From the NCBI GenBank assembly GCA_012031215.1, contig JAAUUB010000001.1, positions 34,395 through 98,394 of the forward strand: a stretch of DNA of 64,000 bases. The letters run 5' to 3'. Below are positions 2,414 through 53,248 of this stretch, piece after piece. This stretch comes from Microscillaceae bacterium (GTDB lineage Bacteria > Bacteroidota > Bacteroidia > Cytophagales > Microscillaceae). Both the position numbers and the translations under genes were made by a program. Under the pieces are notes generated by a model. It had not been told where the DNA came from, did no database searches, and was given only the letters and a program-made list of their open reading frames with translations. Position 1 is the stretch's first letter; each line of letters starts with the position of its first letter.

Positions 2414-3739
2414 ATGGCGGAAGGACCAAAGCTTACTATTGCAGATGAGAAGATGCAGTTTGAATTTACTCCCAGACTGCGTCGTAAAATATTTACTACG
2501 CTGGCTTTTGGCTTGGTGTTGTTATTGGCGGGCATTGGCCTGGAAGCCGCTGGGGTTTTTGCGGGAGGGCATGGTGCTGAGGAGCACGCGCTCTTGGGCG
2601 GGGGTGGAGATGCTCATGGTCACTATCACTGGACAAAGCGTTTGTGGGCTAATCTCTGGCTATGTTGTGTGTATTTTACTGGCATCGCCCTGGCAGGGGT
2701 TTTCTTTGTTTCGGTGAATTATGTAGCTTGGGCAGGCTGGTCGGCCCTCATCAAGCGGGTTCCTGAGGCCTTCGGGGGCTTTTTGCCTATCACCTTCGTT
2801 TTAATGCTGATTTTGTTCTTTGTCGCAGGCCACGATTTATTTCACTGGACCCACGAAGGTATTACCGACCCTAAGCATCCAAATTACGATGCTATTATTG
2901 CTAGCAAAGCAGCTTATCTGAATGTACCTTTCTTTTTAGGAAGAACAATCGTCTATTTTGGCCTTTGGTACTTGCTTTTTGCCTATTTCCGTAAGCTCTC
3001 TAAAAAAGAAGACCAGGTATCTGATTACCGGGCTTATCTCGAAAATCCAACTACTTACAATCGCCGGGTGTACTTTTCTGCGGTTTTTTTGGTAGTCTTT
3101 GCCGTTACCACGTCTATGGCGGCCTGGGATTGGGTGATGTCTATTGATACTCATTGGTTTAGCACTATGTTTGGGTGGTATAACTTTGCCAGTTGGTTTG
3201 TAGCGGGAATGGCTACTATCACCCTGGCCGTGATTTATCTGAAAGAATCTGGTTATCTCAAACTGGTCAACCAGCACCACCTCCATGATTTGGGCAAGTT
3301 TATGTTTGCTTTCAGCATTTTTTGGACATATATCTGGTTTTCACAGTTTTTACTGATTTACTATGCCCACATTCCCGAAGAAACTTTCTATTGGGAGCCG
3401 CGTCTTTTTGGGCATTATCGCGAGGTGTTTTTCCTTAATCTCTTTGTGAATTTCACCTTTCCTTTTCTGGCTTTGATGACCAAAGAATCGAAGCGGACAA
3501 CTATTTTCCTGAAAATTGCGGCCATTGCCATTTTGATAGGACATTATCTCGATTTTTATATGATGATTATGCCAGGCACAGTAGGCGATAACGCCGGGTT
3601 CTTCCTGTTGGAATTTGGGACATTGTCAATTTTTATAGCCGTATTTATTTTTATGGTGGCGCGTGGATTGGCCCAATTACCGCTGATTCCTAAAAATGAC
3701 CCTTATCTCAAAGAGAGTATATATTTTACCCAATTTTAA
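2414..3739 (+). CDS. actF: ACIII subunit ActF (second NrfD-like polytopic membrane subunit)
   Basis: 441 aa, 10 or more predicted TM helices, and an NrfD-like W/F/Y-rich pattern. It is the last gene before the oxidase genes, as in Rhodothermus/Flavobacterium act operons. Confidence 0.7.
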   Translation: MAEGPKLTIADEKMQFEFTPRLRRKIFTTLAFGLVLLLAGIGLEAAGVFAGGHGAEEHALLGGGGDAHGHYHWTKRLWANLWLCCVYFTGIALAGVFFVSVNYVAWAGWSALIKRVPEAFGGFLPITFVLMLILFFVAGHDLFHWTHEGITDPKHPNYDAIIASKAAYLNVPFFLGRTIVYFGLWYLLFAYFRKLSKKEDQVSDYRAYLENPTTYNRRVYFSAVFLVVFAVTTSMAAWDWVMSIDTHWFSTMFGWYNFASWFVAGMATITLAVIYLKESGYLKLVNQHHLHDLGKFMFAFSIFWTYIWFSQFLLIYYAHIPEETFYWEPRLFGHYREVFFLNLFVNFTFPFLALMTKESKRTTIFLKIAAIAILIGHYLDFYMMIMPGTVGDNAGFFLLEFGTLSIFIAVFIFMVARGLAQLPLIPKNDPYLKESIYFTQF

Positions 3740-3802
3740 AAACATTCTCGGACAACAAGTTCTTAAGTTTAGACAATTAAGGACTTACAAGCAATTATCA
3801 TT

Positions 3803-4861
3803 ATGAGTGGATTAATCATTGGTTTAGTAGCCGCCCTGATTTTGGTGATTTTGTTTATGCTTTTTCGCATTCAGGCACTTATCACAATTGCGAAAGGTGG
3901 AGATAGACCAGTAGGGACAAGTAATAAGGTAAATGGGGCATTGATGCTCATTGTGCCTATCGTATTGCTGGCACTGGTTGCCTGGTATTCGCCCATTGCG
4001 GCCCGCAATTTTTTGCCTGAGGCATCTTCTGTACATGGTGTAGTAACCGATAATTTGTTTTGGGTTACCATCACCGTCATTTCTTTGATGTTTTTGATTA
4101 CTAATGCCGGGCTTTTCTGGTTTGCTTACAAATATCAATACAAAGAAGGTCGTCAAGCAAGTTTTTTTCACGATAATACCCGCCTAGAAGTATTTTGGAC
4201 TATTGTGCCTGCCGTGATTATGGCACTCTTGGTTTTCTTTGGTTGGAAAGCCTGGTCGGATATAACTTCTGAACCTCCAAAAGAAGCAATGGTAGTAGAA
4301 ATCATGGGTAAGCAATTTGCCTGGCAGGTGCGCTACCCTGGCGTGGACAAGCAGCTAGGTAGTTATGATTTTCGCTTGATTGATGATGTTGCTGGCAATG
4401 AATTCGGGATTGATTTTGAAGATAAAAAGGCTGAAGATGACTTTCTGGCCCGGGAAATGTATTTACCTAAGGGACAGCCAGTTTTGTTTAAAATTCGTGC
4501 CCGAGATGTATTGCACAGTGTTTTTGCCCCCCATTTTCGCCTAAAGATGGATGCTGTCCCTGGCATGCCTACTCAATTTCACTTTGTGCCTACAAAAACC
4601 ACTGAAGAGATGCGCTCTCAGCTCAACAATCCACAGTTTGATTATGAAATTGCTTGTACGGAAGTATGTGGGCGGGGACATTTCGCCATGAAGTTTAAGA
4701 TAGTGGTGGTTGAGCCGGAAGAATACAGGAAGTGGTATGCGGAACAACCTACTTTCTTGGAGCAAAATCCACAGTTTAAGGGCAAAGGCTTGTCCGATTT
4801 GCGCAAGAAAAACCTTGCAAAGCGGAATGCTGAGCAGATGAAAGAACAGGCAAGTTTGTAA
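3803..4861 (+). CDS. coxB: Cytochrome c oxidase subunit II (CuA centre; no fused cytochrome c domain)
   Basis: Two N-terminal TM helices. CuA ligand motif H...C-TEV-CGRGH-F-AM near the C-terminus. No CXXCH motif. Confidence 0.9.
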   Translation: MSGLIIGLVAALILVILFMLFRIQALITIAKGGDRPVGTSNKVNGALMLIVPIVLLALVAWYSPIAARNFLPEASSVHGVVTDNLFWVTITVISLMFLITNAGLFWFAYKYQYKEGRQASFFHDNTRLEVFWTIVPAVIMALLVFFGWKAWSDITSEPPKEAMVVEIMGKQFAWQVRYPGVDKQLGSYDFRLIDDVAGNEFGIDFEDKKAEDDFLAREMYLPKGQPVLFKIRARDVLHSVFAPHFRLKMDAVPGMPTQFHFVPTKTTEEMRSQLNNPQFDYEIACTEVCGRGHFAMKFKIVVVEPEEYRKWYAEQPTFLEQNPQFKGKGLSDLRKKNLAKRNAEQMKEQASL

Positions 4862-36364: not shown

Positions 36365-37549
36365 ATGATGCGCAATTTAAATGACCTTTGTCGTATTTCC
36401 CAAAAAGATTCCTTGTGTATTTTGGGTTTGATGTCGGGCACTTCCCTGGATGGCTTGGATTTAGCCCTTTGTCATTTTGCGGGATGGGGCACTTCGCTAT
36501 CCTGGCAGGTCGAGAAAGCAGTCACCATTCCCTATCCGGCTGAGATACAAACCGAATTGCGGACGGTATTTGCCCAAGCCCAGGCCGGTTTGGAGAAAAT
36601 CTGTTTATTGCACGCTCGCTTAGGTCAGTGGTATGCCCAAACGGTAGGCGATACCCTGGCGGCTTGGGACATTTCTCCGCAAACCCTGGATGCTATTGCC
36701 AGCCATGGCCAAACCATTTATCATGCGCCCTGCCATCAACACGGCCAGCCCAAGCAGCCAAATGCCAGCCTACAAATTGGCGATGCCGACCGCATTGCCT
36801 TTCAAACCGGGGTCATCACACTGGCTGATTTTCGCCAGAAACACCTGGCTGCCGGCGGGGAGGGTGCCCCCTTGGCCGTTTATGGCGATTATCACCTTTT
36901 TTTTAGTACTTCGGAAAACCGGTTTTTGCTTAACATAGGGGGGATTGCCAACTTTACCTATCTGCCCGCCGGAGGAAAACCCACGCAAATTCAGTACAGC
37001 GATACGGGCCCCGGCAATACACTCATTGATGCCGCCATGCGCAAATGGTTTGCGCCCAGCCAATATGACGAAAACGGGCAAACGGCCCAAAGGGGCAAGA
37101 TAAATTTACCTTTGCTGGCCCAGCTCAAAATGCAGCCTTTTTTTGCCAAACCGCTGCCCAAGACTACCGGGGGGGAGGTTTTTTATCTGCAATGGGCCGA
37201 ATCACAAGCCCAGCGCCTCAGCCTTGGCCCAATTTTGCCCGAAGACTGGGTGGCCACTTTGAGCCAGTTGACCATAGAAACCGTGGCCCGGGCCATCCAA
37301 GAAACAGCCCTCCAAGGGGCAGTCTATGTGAGCGGGGGGGGAGTACATAATCGTTTTTTGATGGAAGGCCTGCAAAGGGTTTTGCCTGATTTTAATATCC
37401 GGCCTCTGGAAGCCTTGGGGGTATCGTCGGAGGCCAAGGAGGCTTTGCTTTTTGCTTTTTTAGCCTATCGTACAATCCGGGGCGATGCCACCGATTTTGG
37501 CTTGGGTTTGCCTTCGGTCAGTTTTGGCAAAATTTCCCTGCCCTATTAG
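36365..37549 (+). CDS. anmK: Anhydro-N-acetylmuramic acid kinase
   Basis: GLMSGTSLDGLDLAL N-terminal ASKHA motif and the overall AnmK length/pattern. Confidence 0.9.
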   Translation: MMRNLNDLCRISQKDSLCILGLMSGTSLDGLDLALCHFAGWGTSLSWQVEKAVTIPYPAEIQTELRTVFAQAQAGLEKICLLHARLGQWYAQTVGDTLAAWDISPQTLDAIASHGQTIYHAPCHQHGQPKQPNASLQIGDADRIAFQTGVITLADFRQKHLAAGGEGAPLAVYGDYHLFFSTSENRFLLNIGGIANFTYLPAGGKPTQIQYSDTGPGNTLIDAAMRKWFAPSQYDENGQTAQRGKINLPLLAQLKMQPFFAKPLPKTTGGEVFYLQWAESQAQRLSLGPILPEDWVATLSQLTIETVARAIQETALQGAVYVSGGGVHNRFLMEGLQRVLPDFNIRPLEALGVSSEAKEALLFAFLAYRTIRGDATDFGLGLPSVSFGKISLPY

Positions 37550-38713: not shown

Positions 38714-40519
38714 TTGTTTTGTTACATATCTTGGCCGGGATTTTTTATGAGCATAAGCTATTCACAACTATTTTGGGCCGGGGCACTGGCCTGGTTTCTC
38801 TTCTGGCCTGGCCCTTTGGCGGCCCAATGGCAAACTCGCTTCGAGCAAAGCGAAGGCCGCCAGACTGTAAGCTATGCCGAAGGAATGGACTTTTATGAAA
38901 AACTGGCCCGGGCTTATCCTCAGACCATTCGCTTGGTACCTCAAGGACTTACTGACAGTGGATTGCCTTTGCATACAGTCGTTTTTTCCTATGATGGCAA
39001 TTTTGACCCGGCGCAGGTGAGGGCGCAAAACCGCCCGGTCTGGCTGATAAACAATGCCATTCACGCAGGGGAGCCTGACGGGGTAGAGGCTACCCGCCAA
39101 TTGATGCTGGCCCTGGCTCAAAACCCGGAACTGGCCCGCCAAACGGTGGTGGTGGCCATCCCATTTTATAACATCGGGGGGGTGCTGAATCGTAACCAAA
39201 CTACCCGGGTCAATCAAAACGGGCCAGAAGCCTATGGCTTCAGAGGCAATGCCCGCTACTATGACCTGAACCGGGATTTTATCAAGGCCGATTCTCGCAA
39301 TGCCCTGAGCTTTGCCCAAATCTTCCATACCTGGCAACCCCAACTCTTTCTGGATACCCACGTGAGTAATGGAGCCGATTATCAACACGTCATGACCTAC
39401 ATCGCTACCCAGGCCGACAAGCTGGGCGGCCCGATGGGGCATTATTTGCGCCTTTTCTTTATCCCACAATTAGAGCAAAAAATGGCCGACCGCCAGTTTC
39501 CGATGTGTCCTTATGTGAATGCCTACGGACGAAACCCCTTTCCCGATGGATACCCCCAGTTTTATGATTTGCCACGTTATTCTTCGGGCTATGTCGCTCT
39601 TTTTGCCTGCTTAGGTTTTATTGCCGAAACCCACATGCTCAAGCCTTTTGCCCAAAGAGTAGCCGCTACCTATGCCCTGATGCGCAGTATGTTGGAAATG
39701 AGTGAGGCCGAAGGCGCAAAACTGACCGACCTGCAAAAAAAACAGTACCAAAGCCAGGCACAAAAAGATTCGCTGAAGCTGGACTGGGAAGTCCGTAAGG
39801 ATACGGCTCGCCGCATTGCCTTTGCGGGCTATGCTTCGCGCCGGATTCCCAGCCGGGTAACCACCGGAGAGCGGCTCTTTTATGACCGTACCCAGCCGGT
39901 GCAGGGCGAGATTCCTTTTTATGAGTTTTTTAGCCCTATCCGCCCGGTGCAAAAGCCGATGGCCTATATCCTTCCGCAGGCCTGGACCGAGGTGCTGGAG
40001 CGTTTGCAAGCCAGTGGAGTGCAGTGGAAGCGCCTTCGCCAAGACCAGGAAATACCAGTGGAAGTATATTTTATAGAAAATTACCAAACCCGCACGGCCC
40101 CTTTTGAAGGACATTACCCGCATTTTAATACAGAGGTGCGTTCCGAAAAACAGTTGCTCACCTTTCAAAAAGGGGATTATGTGCTTTGGGTCAATCAACC
40201 CGCCGGGCGATATCTGGTAGAAACCCTGGAGCCCACCGCCCCTGATTCCTTTTTTAACTGGAATTTTTTTGACATCATCTTGCAACAAAAAGAGGGCTAT
40301 TCAGACTATGTTTTTGAAGACCTGGCTGAGCAGCTTCTGAAAGAGGATGCCTCTCTCCGGACGCAGTTTGCGCGCAAGATGCAAGAAGACCAGGCTTTTG
40401 CCCAGAACCCCGAGGCGCAATTGGACTACATTTACCAGCATTCTGTGTATCGCGAGCCAGGCTATAGGCGCTATCCTGTTTTCCGGCTCCATCAGGAATT
40501 GCCCCTGGCCACCGAATAA
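38714..40519 (+). CDS. Secreted M14-family zinc carboxypeptidase-like protein
   Basis: Signal peptide. HxxE zinc motif (IHAGEPDG), with a downstream His and an N/D-rich substrate pocket region. About 600 aa. Confidence 0.55.
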   Translation: MFCYISWPGFFMSISYSQLFWAGALAWFLFWPGPLAAQWQTRFEQSEGRQTVSYAEGMDFYEKLARAYPQTIRLVPQGLTDSGLPLHTVVFSYDGNFDPAQVRAQNRPVWLINNAIHAGEPDGVEATRQLMLALAQNPELARQTVVVAIPFYNIGGVLNRNQTTRVNQNGPEAYGFRGNARYYDLNRDFIKADSRNALSFAQIFHTWQPQLFLDTHVSNGADYQHVMTYIATQADKLGGPMGHYLRLFFIPQLEQKMADRQFPMCPYVNAYGRNPFPDGYPQFYDLPRYSSGYVALFACLGFIAETHMLKPFAQRVAATYALMRSMLEMSEAEGAKLTDLQKKQYQSQAQKDSLKLDWEVRKDTARRIAFAGYASRRIPSRVTTGERLFYDRTQPVQGEIPFYEFFSPIRPVQKPMAYILPQAWTEVLERLQASGVQWKRLRQDQEIPVEVYFIENYQTRTAPFEGHYPHFNTEVRSEKQLLTFQKGDYVLWVNQPAGRYLVETLEPTAPDSFFNWNFFDIILQQKEGYSDYVFEDLAEQLLKEDASLRTQFARKMQEDQAFAQNPEAQLDYIYQHSVYREPGYRRYPVFRLHQELPLATE

Positions 40520-40620
40520 CCATTTTGCAGAAGGCCTGCTGCCCGACAAGTTTCAAAAGGATACAAGCAGACTTGGCAGCCTGGCAAATTCTTGCTATTT
40601 TTATCAAAATGCTCAAAAAA

Positions 40621-41336
40621 TGGATGTAAACCCTAAACCCTGGCAAGATGTCTGGCGAGATTTACAGGATGTCTGGAAACGCAATGTGGAAGACAAGGAC
40701 ATTTGGCAAAACCTGAACCAGGAGTGGCGGCGCTTGTTTGCGCCGGCGCAACAGTGGTGGGATGGTCTTACGCCGGTCTGGAAAACGGCATTGAAAGCCC
40801 AGCTTCATATTTTTGATGCCGGGCATACCCCCAGTGAAGAAGAGCTAAAAAAAATAATGGCTTTGCAAAAGCTTCATCTGGCTGATTCTGAAATCAATGA
40901 TTTAGTACCTCTGAAGCCATTGCGCTACCTCCAATACCTTGACCTGAGCAGTACGGCGGTGCTAGACCTGAAACCGCTGGCCCTCTTGCCCAGTTTGGTG
41001 CATATAGAAGCAGCCAATACCCGTATTTATGACCTGAAGCCGCTCAAAAAGCTCAAAAACCTGCGTTATCTGGAAGTGAGTATGACGGATGTGGAGGATT
41101 TGGCTCCGCTCAAAGTGCTGGCACAACTGAAAGCCCTGCGCTGCAACCATACCTATGTCCGAAGCCTGAAGCCCCTCTATGGCCTGCGCAAGCTCGAAAG
41201 CCTGCATTGCCAAAGCACGCCTCTTACAGCGCGGGCAGTAAGGGCTTTTCAGCGGCGATTTCCCCAAGCAGAATTGGTCTTTCATTTTGAAGAGAAAACC
41301 CGCTCAAAACCCTGGTGGCGGTGGTTGGGGATTTAG
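40621..41336 (+). CDS. Leucine-rich-repeat protein
   Basis: At least six 22-aa LRRs (LKPLxxLxxLxxLDLSxTxVxDLxPL). The upstream part of ORF 40347.. overlaps the peptidase gene and is excluded. Confidence 0.6.
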
Positions 41337-41397
41337 TGCAAGCGATAAAAATTATAAAACTCAGTAGAAATTAATTTGAATCAGTAAACTCACGAAG

Positions 41398-42588
41398 ATG
41401 TCCCATAAACACGCTTCAAAAAAACCTTATAAAATTACAACCGTCGAGCAGGCAAAAAATGTTGCCTCTGGCTTTCTCAAAACAATACAACTTGACAAAG
41501 CCGTAGAGTTTGGCTTGCCAGAAATAGACGATCGTTATCACATTTGGCGTGTGCCATTAAAATCAAAAAACAGTGATAATATAGGAGAAATAGTTATTGA
41601 TGCCTACACAACACTTATTGTGGAAAGAAAAACAACCAAAGCGGAAGTATTGGAGGCCCGGCTTTTAGGAAGAAAATTGCAAGCCACTGGGATGAAGAAA
41701 GAATCCATCTTACCAAAAATATCCACTCTTCGAAACACCATTGGTCTGGGCGATGCGGAGTTACTTTTGCAAGAAATTCCCAATGAGTCTATTGACCTGG
41801 TTTTCACTTCACCGCCTTATTACAATGCGCGTCCCGAGTATGCCGAATATCTCAGTTATGACGAGTACTTACTTAAAATAAGGAAAATAATTCATCAGGC
41901 ACATCGGGTTTTGGGCGAAGGGCGCTTTTTTGTGATGAATGTATCTCCGGTGCTTATTCGAAGGGCCAACCGCAATGAGGCTTCAAAAAGAATTGCCGTT
42001 CCTTTTGATTTTCATAGAATTTTTGTGGAAGAAGGATTCGATTTCATAGATGACATACATTGGGTAAAGCCAGAAGGGGCAGGTTGGGCCACTGGTCGGG
42101 GAAGGCGTTTTGCCGCTGACCGCAATCCTTTGCAATACAAACCTGTTCCAGTTACAGAGTATATCTTAGTGTATCGAAAACAAAGCGATAAGCTTATCGA
42201 CTGGCATATTCGCAAACATCCTCAACCGGAAATAGTAGAGGCCTCTAAAATCAAAGATGGGTACGAAGTAACTAACCTTTGGAGGATTCATCCGGCTTTT
42301 CACAAAGAACATCCGGCCGTTTTCCCTCTTGAACTGGCCGAAAAAGTAATTTTGTATTATTCCTTCAAAGAAGATGTTGTTTTAGACCCTTTTGCAGGCA
42401 CTGGCACAACAGGAAAAGCCGCAGTTAAAAATGGGCGCAGGTTTGTACTTTTTGAGCAGGATGAATCTTTTATGAAGATTATTAAGGAGGATGTATTTCA
42501 ATGGCTACAAAAAGATGCCGAGAAAGTCAATTGGTTAAATACACCTCCTCCTACAAGTACTCAACAGTTTATAGGTTTTTCTGAGTGA
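41398..42588 (+). CDS. Type II DNA methyltransferase, beta-class (N6-adenine or N4-cytosine), with a 130-aa N-terminal extension
   Basis: Motif [11 protein letters not shown] precedes motif [14 protein letters not shown]. This is beta-group order. Confidence 0.85.
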
Positions 42589-42591
42589 GCG

Positions 42592-43680
42592 ATGAGCAAA
42601 CAGAAGCGATTATCAAAGCAAATTCCTGAAATAGGGCGAAAGCTTGCCAAGTTTTCTGGGCGAGAACTCCTCCAAAGAGTTGGCAAATCTGTCCTCAATC
42701 AAGTAGTAACTTCCATTCTTTGCGGGGGAAATGTGAGGGCTTTGACAGAAGGATTAACCCAACGCAGGGTTTTAATTTCTAATGCATCTCTTTTTATAAC
42801 CTATTTAAAAGGAATGAGCCTTTTCAAAAATTTTGAAGAAGAATGCAGTCAGATTATTTTGAATGAATTGAGTCAGGGTTCGCTAAGTGGGGAAGAAAAA
42901 ATTTATCTACAATGGCTTATTGGCCTGACAAGTAAAAACTTCCAGAATGTATTAAGGAGCAATCCAGAGGATTTGGAACGACATTTAGAAGAAATGAAGG
43001 ATGGCTTAAATGAAGTTCAACTAGCGATGCAGCAGGCGTTTGGTAGCTTAGAAGCCAGCATTCAGGTCGGAGCGGAAAGCTACATAATTCGCTGGCCTTC
43101 AATTTTGCAAATTTTTTATGCTATCGGAACTCAAACTTTGGCGATAAGGGGCAGTGAAAAATCTATGTATGGCAAACTGTTTGAAAAGCTTATTTTAGGG
43201 TCTTTGCTTACTATCTTGGGCTTTAAATTGATTGAGCCATCTCAAAGCGATAAAGCCAAGATGGTTTTTTGGCTTACACAAAGGGAAAATAAGAGAGAAA
43301 GCGATGCTACTATCCTATTAAAGCCTGGGGTGGGGGCAAGATTCGATATTGGGTTTATAGGGCCGGGAAATAGCGAAATTTCTCTGGACAAGGTATCCCG
43401 GTTTGAGAGAGAAATGAATTATGGCCGTCAATTACATTATATGTCCACAATCATCTTGGTGGATAAGATTGGAGAACAAAGTAGGATTGCAGCGTTGGCC
43501 GATGAAATTAATGGCACAATTATTCAAATGAGCATGACTTACTGGGTCAAAGAGGTCGCGGAGATACTCAATCAAAAAATGGCATTTCGACATCCTCTAA
43601 TCAAAATGAAACCTGATGAGAGCCTGGATTTTATCCGAGAAAAAATGCAAAGTGTTGATTTAAACCAGTTTATACAATAA
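42592..43680 (+). CDS. Hypothetical protein; candidate cognate restriction endonuclease
   Basis: Starts 4 nt after the MTase stop. Lower GC than its neighbours. No recognisable catalytic motif could be assigned by eye. Confidence 0.45.
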   Translation: MSKQKRLSKQIPEIGRKLAKFSGRELLQRVGKSVLNQVVTSILCGGNVRALTEGLTQRRVLISNASLFITYLKGMSLFKNFEEECSQIILNELSQGSLSGEEKIYLQWLIGLTSKNFQNVLRSNPEDLERHLEEMKDGLNEVQLAMQQAFGSLEASIQVGAESYIIRWPSILQIFYAIGTQTLAIRGSEKSMYGKLFEKLILGSLLTILGFKLIEPSQSDKAKMVFWLTQRENKRESDATILLKPGVGARFDIGFIGPGNSEISLDKVSRFEREMNYGRQLHYMSTIILVDKIGEQSRIAALADEINGTIIQMSMTYWVKEVAEILNQKMAFRHPLIKMKPDESLDFIREKMQSVDLNQFIQ

Positions 43681-43691
43681 AAATCAAGTTT

Positions 43692-44399
43692 TTGGAGCCT
43701 TTCTTCTTTCACCCCGACTTGTCTTCGCCCACCCTGGTCTTAGACCCAGAAGAGGCCCATCACGCCCTCAAAGTAAAGCGGAAAAAGGTGGGCGACTTGC
43801 TTTGGCTCACCGATGGGGCCGGGCATCTGGCCAAAGCCATCATTGCGCACATTTCCAAAGAGCGCTGCGAAGTACGTATTCTCGACCTTCAGGCGGCTTC
43901 CCGGCCAGTCTGGGGCATTCACCTGGCCATTGCCCCACCCAAGCACCCCAACCGCCTGGAATGGCTTGTGGAAAAACTGACCGAAATAGGGGTAGGACAA
44001 ATCACCTTTCTAAAAACCCACTATACCGAAAAATTGGGTCTGAAGTGGGAAAGGTTGGAAAAAATTGCCCAAAGTGCACTCAAACAATCTCGCCAGGTGT
44101 GGCAGCCAGCTTTAAAACCTATGGCTGAAATAGCGGCTTTTTTGGAAGAAATGGGCTCATTTAATGGGCAAAAGTGCATCGCCTATGCCGCCGCACAAAA
44201 TTCGCCCCTGGCGCAAATCCTCCAAAAGCAGCAAAGTGTTTGTATCTTGGTGGGGCCGGAGGGAGACTTCCATCCCCAAGAAATAGCAATGGCACAGGCG
44301 CAAGGCTTTCTGGGCGTGCGCCTGGCCGAGTCCATTTTACGCACCGAAACTGCGGGGCTGGTGGCTTGCCAAACCGTGCAAATTATCAATCAAATTTAA
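43692..44399 (+). CDS. rsmE: 16S rRNA (uracil1498-N3)-methyltransferase RsmE family
   Basis: N-terminal PUA-like region and a C-terminal SPOUT knot (ILVGPEGDFHPQEI…LGVRLAESILRTETA). Confidence 0.85.
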   Translation: MEPFFFHPDLSSPTLVLDPEEAHHALKVKRKKVGDLLWLTDGAGHLAKAIIAHISKERCEVRILDLQAASRPVWGIHLAIAPPKHPNRLEWLVEKLTEIGVGQITFLKTHYTEKLGLKWERLEKIAQSALKQSRQVWQPALKPMAEIAAFLEEMGSFNGQKCIAYAAAQNSPLAQILQKQQSVCILVGPEGDFHPQEIAMAQAQGFLGVRLAESILRTETAGLVACQTVQIINQI

Positions 44400-44403
44400 A
44401 AAA

Positions 44404-51572: not shown

Positions 51573-51767
51573 TTTTTTTGAAAATAATTTCGTTAAATTT
51601 TTTTGTTTCGTAAAAATAGACCAATTTTGTAGTCCATAGCTGGTTGAAGGATATTGGAGGTTAAGTGGACAGCCCCGTTCACACCTCCAATTATCTTTTT
51701 TAGGCCTTCCCAAAAGATTTTCCCATTAAAAGTAAACCCCGGCCCTTTCCTATTGGTTTTTGAGGGC

Positions 51768-53248
51768 ATGGTTCCGGTAGAAAATTCTTTCTGTAATGTA
51801 CTTTGGCTTAAGCGTGATTTAAGAATACGCGATCATGCGCCTTTGCAAGCCGCCCTCCAGACGCGCCTTCCCCTGATGCTGCTCTACGCCTGGGAGCCTT
51901 CCATTCTGGCCTATCCAGATTGGGACGTGCGCCACGGCCAATTTGTGTGGCATTCCTTACAGGCACTCAACCAAAGTCTGCGTCCTTATCAGGCCGAGGT
52001 GGCCCAGCCTTACGGCCATATTTTGGATATTTTTGCTTGGATTAGCCGTTTTTATCGCATCCGGGCCGTTTATTCTTACCAAGAAACGGGCCTGAGAGCT
52101 GGCTACGACCGCGATCGAGCCGTAAAAAAATACCTGGCACAAAGGCAAATCCTTTGGCATGAGTTTCAACTCAATGGGGTAGAAAGAGGAAGACACAACC
52201 GGGCTGGTTGGGACGAAGCCTGGGAAAACTTCATGAAGGCCCCTCTCCAGCATCCAAACCTGGAAGCCCTCCAAACCCTGCCCCTCACCTGGCCAGCAAA
52301 GCTGCAAATGCCTCCTCACCTGGCCAAAGAACTGGCGCAATATCCGTCGGCTTATCAACCTGCCGGCGAAAAATACGCCTGGCAATATTATCGTAGTTTT
52401 TTGAATCATCGGGTGGCCCATTACAACCGCCATCTTTCCTTACCCGAACCGAGCCGAACCAGTTGCAGCCGCCTGTCTCCATACCTGGCCTGGGGCAATC
52501 TGAGCGTTCGCCAGGTCTATCAGGCATATCAGCAGGTTTTGGGCGAAAGTCCTTATTCATTTCAACTCAAAAGCTTTCGGTCCCGCCTGCAATGGCGTTG
52601 TCATTTTATACAGAAGTTTGAAATGGAAGACCGGATAGAATTTGGACATCTCAACCGGGCTTATACCGATTTGGGGCAGGAATTAAAGCCGGAATGGATA
52701 GAGGCTTGGCAAGAAGGCAAAACGGGGTATCCTTGGTAGATGCGGCTATGCGTTGTGTGCGGGCGACGGGCTATCTTAACTTTCGCCTGCGGGCGATGGT
52801 GGTTTCTTTTCTCACGCACTTACTCTGGCAGCCCTGGCAAAGCGGGGTACATCACCTGGCCCGAATGTTTTTGGACTATGAACCGGGTATTCATTTTTCT
52901 CAGTTTCAGATGCAGGCGGGCGTAACGGGCATCAATACCATCCGGGTCTATAATCCTACCAAGCAGGCCCAGGAAAAGGACCAAGAGGGCGTATTTATCC
53001 GCAAATGGGTGCCCGAACTGGCCCGATTACCGCAGGCACTGCTGGCGCAGCCAAGCAAAATGACAGCCTTTGAGCAAAATCTGTATCGCTGCCAATTGGG
53101 AAAAGATTACCCTCATCCCCTGGTGGGTTTTGAAACAGCCTACAAAAAAGCCTCGAGCCAATTGCACTCCTTGCGAAAAAGGGAGGAAGTTCGTCAGGAA
53201 AATCGAAGGATTCTACGCCGACACGTACGCCCAAAACCGGAAGAATAA
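51768..53248 (+). CDS. Cryptochrome/photolyase-family flavoprotein. Frameshift in a T-run near 52730.
   Basis: N-terminal alpha/beta domain ([16 protein letters not shown]). C-terminal FAD-binding domain in the second frame (…[16 protein letters not shown]…W…[31 protein letters not shown]). The frames join as GKTGYP-LVDAAMR. Confidence 0.8.

Follow-up and report, generated by a model that had tools for sequence, protein, structure and literature searches.

We identified a two-gene type IIP restriction-modification (R-M) cassette of the CfrBI/StyI family, which has very probably been acquired horizontally by the chromosome of a Microscillaceae bacterium and is located between an LRR protein gene and rsmE (the window hereafter is the whole 64-kb stretch of DNA that was analysed, and all positions are given in it; Table 1). 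The cassette consists of a DNA methyltransferase gene (M) followed by a restriction endonuclease gene (R). Both ORFs proposed by an earlier sequence-only reading of this DNA (396 and 362 aa) are there, co-directional and 3 nt apart, the junction reading TGA-GCG-ATG. Neither ORF contains a frameshift or an internal stop, and in full-length alignments of 39 REases and 36 MTases (the window proteins included) every invariant column keeps the shared residue; at the sequence level, both genes are intact. The description of the module as an "orphan" in the earlier reading does not hold, since M and R are both present.

Table 1. Features of the CfrBI-like cassette in the window (residue numbers refer to the encoded proteins).
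Feature	Position	Strand	Description
Spacer, presumed promoter and leader	41337..41397	+	61 nt, AT-rich, from LRR gene stop to MTase start
M gene	41398-42588	+	396 aa; ORF call
N-terminal MTase domain	41425..41670	+	about residues 10-91; helix, three strands, helix
MTase motif IV SPPY, catalytic	41809..41820	+	residues 138-141; S138, P139, P140 and Y141 invariant in 36 homologues
MTase motif I DPFAGTGT, AdoMet binding	42385..42408	+	residues 330-337
M-R junction TGA-GCG-ATG	42586..42594	+	3-nt spacer
R gene	42592-43680	+	362 aa; ORF call
Predicted REase catalytic core, strands 2-3 and next helix	43294..43407	+	E236, D238, D252, E262, D266 and K267 invariant

The product of the R gene, in which the sequence-only reading had seen no recognisable family features, is a type II REase of the CfrBI family, a family that is already well known. 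It matches the Pfam model RE_CfrBI (PF09516) with 57.3 bits (E 1.9e-15; the curated gathering cut-off is 25) across residues 33-270, corresponding to model positions 2-242 of 257, and it matches the PADLOC REase_II model from end to end (3.2e-66). A search of 5.8 billion proteins returned 2,322 homologues, and PF09516 was found in 120 out of 120 matches listed; the identical sequence, encoded on a 98-kb contig, is already deposited in NCBI under a CfrBI-family name. In addition, a tblastn search against plasmids revealed 15 small mobilizable enterobacterial plasmids that encode a "CfrBI family restriction endonuclease" (38% identity, 95% query coverage); for example, the REase of pO26_3 is 38% identical over residues 18-362, and its cognate MTase gene lies next to it. 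It is hardly credible that the partner of the MTase is instead a novel nuclease outside all families, or another MTase-coupled effector: no NCBIfam model matched the REase, and no sequence relative was found in the PDB with either the single sequence or a 39-sequence profile, as such a protein would lead one to expect, but the significant Pfam and PADLOC matches, the thousands of homologues, the existing NCBI name, and a fold that matches type II REases all speak against it. The proposal of a candidate novel type II REase thus survives as far as an R-M system with a nuclease partner is concerned, and fails on novelty, since PF09516 describes the family and its prototype has been cloned, purified and mapped (PMC6556831). 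This removes a false lead: the "uncharacterised nuclease" has thousands of sequenced relatives, and the prototype of its family has been purified and mapped.

The closest known systems are CfrBI from the Citrobacter freundii plasmid pZE8, together with its isoschizomers StyI, Eco130I, EcoT14I, BssT1I, and ErhI, as well as the homologous pair carried by Mob plasmids of enterobacteria, pO26_3 of E. coli (NC_013363) among them. They have in common with the window cassette a RE_CfrBI (PF09516) enzyme and a beta-class SPPY MTase with a like N-terminal domain. The REase and MTase are 362 and 396 aa long in the window vs 355 and 376 aa in CfrBI/pO26_3, and they share 38 and 60% identity, respectively, with the enterobacterial pair. 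The window and CfrBI systems both lack a C protein, and the predicted target, CCWWGG, is the same. They differ in location (chromosomal in a Bacteroidota MAG, whereas CfrBI and pO26_3 reside on small enterobacterial plasmids) and in gene layout (see below).

A fold check on the 362-aa protein, as the sequence-only reading had proposed, gave the result expected of a nuclease: the model contains an alpha-beta-beta-beta-alpha-beta core resembling those of solved type II REases, and a PD-(D/E)XK fold is predicted. The nearest solved fold is that of BsoBI, for the window REase and CfrBI alike, although BsoBI (C^YCGRG, as AvaI; PDB 1DC1) shares only 9% identity with the window REase and no detectable sequence homology, and the inner bases of its target differ. 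Structural similarity to Cfr10I, NgoMIV, Bse634I, SgrAI, AgeI, Ecl18kI, PspGI, EcoRII-C, and PfoI is much weaker than to BsoBI, and this CCGG/CCNGG/CCWGG group of PD-(D/E)XK enzymes shows no sequence similarity to the window REase.

Comparison of the 39 aligned REase homologues revealed invariant charged residues at E189, K190, E198, K199, E236, D238, D252, E262, D266, and K267; those in the predicted catalytic core are also kept in the plasmid enzyme that shares 38% identity. Strand 2 carries D238; strand 3 carries D252, reads D252-I-G254, and contains no canonical (D/E)XK. The catalytic triad of BsoBI is D212/E240/K242, and it has no obvious linear counterpart on strand 3 of the window REase. 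The invariant K267, K190, and K199 are candidates for a relocated catalytic lysine, and the invariant core residues may have catalytic roles. To our knowledge, the CfrBI family has no solved structure, and its active site is non-canonical. Similarly, a preprint on CfrBI places BsoBI among the best structural matches and describes a catalytic centre that "deviates from the usual motif" (bioRxiv 10.64898/2025.12.04.692298).

The non-canonical motif, and the origin of the sequence from a MAG in which errors are possible, could also be read as signs of a decaying or inactive remnant, in which the REase would no longer function and the MTase would act alone as a true orphan methylase. We consider this very improbable, since both ORFs are full-length and undisrupted with all family-invariant residues kept, the non-canonical motif is common to the family of the active prototype (bioRxiv 10.64898/2025.12.04.692298), and the avoidance of CCWWGG by the host (see below) argues for past or present cleavage pressure.

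The product of the M gene is, judging from its motifs and relatives, a predicted beta-class DNA methyltransferase of the N4-cytosine type (M.CfrBI type). As the sequence-only reading had recognised, it is a beta-class SPPY enzyme: motif IV lies ahead of motif I, which is the beta-class order. The Pfam model N6_N4_Mtase (PF01555) covers residues 132-364 (8e-44), and the PADLOC model MTase_II (PDLC03246) matches residues 9-365 on model positions 10-365 of 376 (6.8e-146). The S-P-P-Y form of motif IV is typical of N4-cytosine enzymes, and the best relatives in the PDB are TTHA0409 and the N4-cytosine enzyme M.PvuII, along with other cytosine-N4 MTases.

The PDB relatives align to the MTase only from about residue 106, and together with the start of the Pfam match at residue 132 this delimits an N-terminal extension of about 105-130 aa. 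The "unusual 130-aa N-terminal extension" of the earlier reading is therefore real; it is not unusual, being conserved across the M.CfrBI-like family. The MTase shares 60% identity with the 376-aa MTase of pO26_3 over residues 11-364 (the N-terminal 130 residues included), and more than 100 homologues (383-430 aa, 68-81% identity) cover 94-100% of the query. Since the extension is aligned throughout these homologues, the pO26_3 MTase included, it is a trait of the whole M.CfrBI-like family and no peculiarity of the gene in the window.

The extension contains a folded domain (Table 1), modelled by AF2 with pLDDT values of 81-90 for residues 11-90; the values drop to 28-39 for residues 91-120, and a low-confidence linker (residues 92-122) follows the domain. 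The AF2 model of the MTase is poor overall (pLDDT 59), with only the N-terminal domain confident, probably because the alignment, at 69-80% identity, was too shallow. A Pfam search with the N-terminal 110 aa of the MTase gave nothing, even at E 10, and a scan of 1.84 billion representative proteins found the domain in only 151 proteins. In nine of ten hits checked, all nine at least 200 aa long, the domain is followed by PF01555; the tenth is a PKD-repeat protein. Many of the remaining hits are far shorter, most likely fragments of genes. The domain thus looks specific to this MTase family. The CfrBI preprint notes a flexible N-terminus and speculates on a role in DNA recognition (bioRxiv 10.64898/2025.12.04.692298). 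As a side observation, four stretches at residues ~898-965 of a 1401-aa PKD_6/T9SS-tail protein (P0364) show a weak match to the N-terminal domain (E 7e-7, 25% identity); although this is the sole non-MTase hit, it is probably noise from beta-rich repeats.

CfrBI recognises CCWWGG and cuts C/CWWGG, and M.CfrBI produces m4C at the outer C (PMC6556831). We used site avoidance as a proxy for the specificity of the window system. CCWWGG occurs 28 times in the window, compared with 97 expected from dinucleotide shuffles, 93 from an order-2 model, and 45 from order-3/order-4 models, and of the 32 XY(WW/SS)Y′X′ patterns it shows the strongest depletion. When cassette carriers were compared with non-carrier Cytophagales loci, CCWWGG ranked first for depletion among 175 palindromic hexamer patterns (the window makes up half of the carrier DNA in this ranking): carriers contain 38 sites vs 132.6 expected, a ratio of 0.29, vs 0.67 in non-carriers (z -5.4). 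The five other cassette loci, pooled, contain 10 sites vs 39-46 expected, and four of the five have 0-1 sites vs 6-10 expected; the exception is locus L083, with 8 sites vs about 9 expected. A generic compositional effect was considered as an explanation for the deficit and could be rejected only in part, as related Cytophagales loci without a nearby cassette have a baseline deficit of their own (the pooled ratio of 0.67), and carriers lie well below it (the window with P about 8e-7, the other carriers with 3e-4).

Other palindromes are also rare in the window, including GGATCC (0 observed vs 12-15 expected under low-order Markov models, as for all that follow), AGATCT (0 vs 9-11), TGATCA (1 vs 13-18), GTATAC (0 vs 4-12), CCGCGG (1 vs 15), CTGCAG (1 vs 15), and GGCGCC (3 vs 24). 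This suggests further R-M pressures in the genome, for example from a GATC-specific system encoded elsewhere.

Because L083 is not depleted and other palindromes are avoided as well, the avoidance evidence for CCWWGG as the predicted target is supportive rather than decisive. As the REase shares only 38% identity with the closest relatives of the characterised enzymes, its specificity could have drifted. The tandem clade of Bacteroidota might then share the family and mechanism and recognise a sequence other than CCWWGG, in line with that low identity, with the normal CCWWGG count in L083, and with the depletion of further palindromes in the window. We regard this as improbable, given that the 60% identity of the MTase extends through the region between motifs VIII and X, where the TRDs of beta-class enzymes lie, that CCWWGG comes first of 175 patterns in carrier-specific depletion, and that four of the five other carrier loci contain next to none of the expected sites. 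Retaining CCWWGG as the predicted target, we infer from the prototype, and from the 60% identity to the pO26_3 MTase, that the MTase would place m4C at the outer C of this site, and the cloned enzyme would probably turn out to be one more isoschizomer of StyI/CfrBI.

The base composition of the cassette sets it apart from its surroundings, as the sequence-only reading had observed. Its GC content is 40.2%, vs 47.8% in the remaining window, and it is the lowest-GC stretch of its length (2,283 bp; 0.16% of such windows are equally low); GC3 is 0.35 for M and 0.38 for R vs 0.57-0.59 in four neighbour genes. The cassette is surrounded by an M14-peptidase-like gene and the LRR protein gene on one side, and rsmE, a DUF4159 gene, and a beta-helix protein gene on the other. 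The flanking genes had been named as rsmE and cox; rsmE is there, starting 11 nt after the R stop and encoding a protein with Pfam Methyltrans_RNA and PUA_4 domains, but the ORFs scanned from 33 to 59 kb include no cox gene.

Five other Bacteroidota genomes carry the same M-then-R cassette, each in a context unrelated to the others: all flanks differ, and the GC content of the cassette is 0.34-0.40 whatever that of the flanks or host. In L082 the cassette adjoins a tyrosine-integrase gene, and in L084 the RT of a group II intron. The cassette is absent from all 80 related rsmE/DUF4159 Cytophagales loci returned when genome contigs were scanned with the neighbouring DUF4159 protein. In about 45 of these 80 loci rsmE lies next to DUF4159; none of the ~45 has the LRR or M14 genes upstream, and RsmE identity does not exceed 44%. 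Scanning metagenome contigs with RsmE gave no relative, and no empty-site relative was found either among genome contigs (via DUF4159) or among metagenome contigs (via RsmE). The cassette itself is not bordered by direct or inverted repeats in excess of chance, and the site has neither a tRNA nor a mobility gene next to it. Because the composition is foreign, the 80 related loci lack the cassette, and the same cassette occurs in unrelated contexts, we conclude from composition and distribution that it was very probably horizontally acquired, which agrees with the insertion suggested by the sequence-only reading.

Two annotation details of the flanking genes may be added. The LRR ORF as called mechanically (40347-41336) overlaps the 3′ end of the M14-peptidase-like ORF (38714-40519) by 173 nt, and the LRR gene probably starts further downstream in reality, at an ATG inside this ORF. 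In the region 43680-44403, the rsmE gene has a TTG start at 43692. In the region between R and rsmE no terminator-like site was found in our scan, the counts of which were at the level of shuffled sequences; read-through from R into rsmE is possible, and the inserted cassette may drive or disturb transcription of rsmE-DUF4159.

The window cassette differs from its prototype in gene order. In each of the six Bacteroidota loci that were compared, R follows M in tandem, the gap ranging from -4 to +4 nt. In C. freundii pZE8, the CfrBI genes M and R are divergent, and the short promoter region that they share contains one CfrBI site; methylation of this site turns M down and R up (PMC6556831; bioRxiv 10.64898/2025.12.04.692298). 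The same divergent layout is found in pO26_3, with CCATGG in the spacer; the shared promoter region of the prototype and pO26_3 is 76 bp long, whereas the window genes are in tandem with a 3-nt spacer. There is no CCWWGG in the 61-nt spacer upstream of M, or anywhere between 37439 and 44490 (the nearest sites are at 37434 and 44490), so the cassette is flanked on both sides by about 800 bp or more without a site. Since the genes are in tandem and no CCWWGG is near the promoter, the methylation-dependent promoter switch of CfrBI cannot operate in the window cassette.

No C-protein gene is present upstream either, as the 61-nt spacer between the LRR gene and M contains no ORF. In the closest homologous cassette (L086, REase 69% identical), an 86-aa HTH_3/HTH_26 gene at 3567-3827 overlaps the MTase start and looks like a C protein; one cassette having such a gene and the other lacking it, regulation varies within the clade. 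A sigma-70 promoter scan gave counts at shuffle level, for a promoter type that is not valid for Bacteroidota. The tight spacing, taken by itself, suggests that translation of R is coupled to that of M.

These observations document a sub-clade of CfrBI-like systems that is widespread in Bacteroidota and in which M and R lie in tight tandem. We tentatively raise the possibility, which we hold to be rather unlikely on balance, that this clade, lacking both the CfrBI site in its promoter and a C protein, relies on a form of establishment control not yet described for the family, or has a shifted specificity or an atypical catalytic arrangement. As part of that possibility, control may be exerted by obligatory translational coupling of R to M, or the N-terminal domain of the MTase may serve as a DNA-binding autoregulator, like M.SsoII or M.EcoRII. 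The remaining threads (regulation in the tandem clade, the N-terminal domain of the MTase, and the non-canonical active site) concern the family as a whole and are not specific to this locus.

Under our preferred reading, a horizontally acquired R-M system of the CfrBI/StyI type, the cassette would work as follows. From the anatomy of the locus, and as the most economical arrangement, a single promoter upstream of M would transcribe both genes, and R would be translated by coupling or re-initiation at TGA-GCG-ATG, such that no R would be made without M. By analogy with the prototype, and in keeping with the site avoidance, the MTase would methylate the outer C of CCWWGG on both strands with AdoMet, giving N4-methylcytosine; the REase would act as a Mg2+-dependent homodimer that cuts unmethylated C^CWWGG in incoming DNA.

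Elsewhere in the window, a photolyase-like ORF (51654-52739, forward strand) breaks off within the FAD_binding_7 domain, of which it covers model positions 1-56 of 203, and its end is overlapped by an ORF in another frame of the same strand (52694-53248); the region 51654-53248 has the look of a photolyase gene that is frameshifted or split, or of an error in the assembly.
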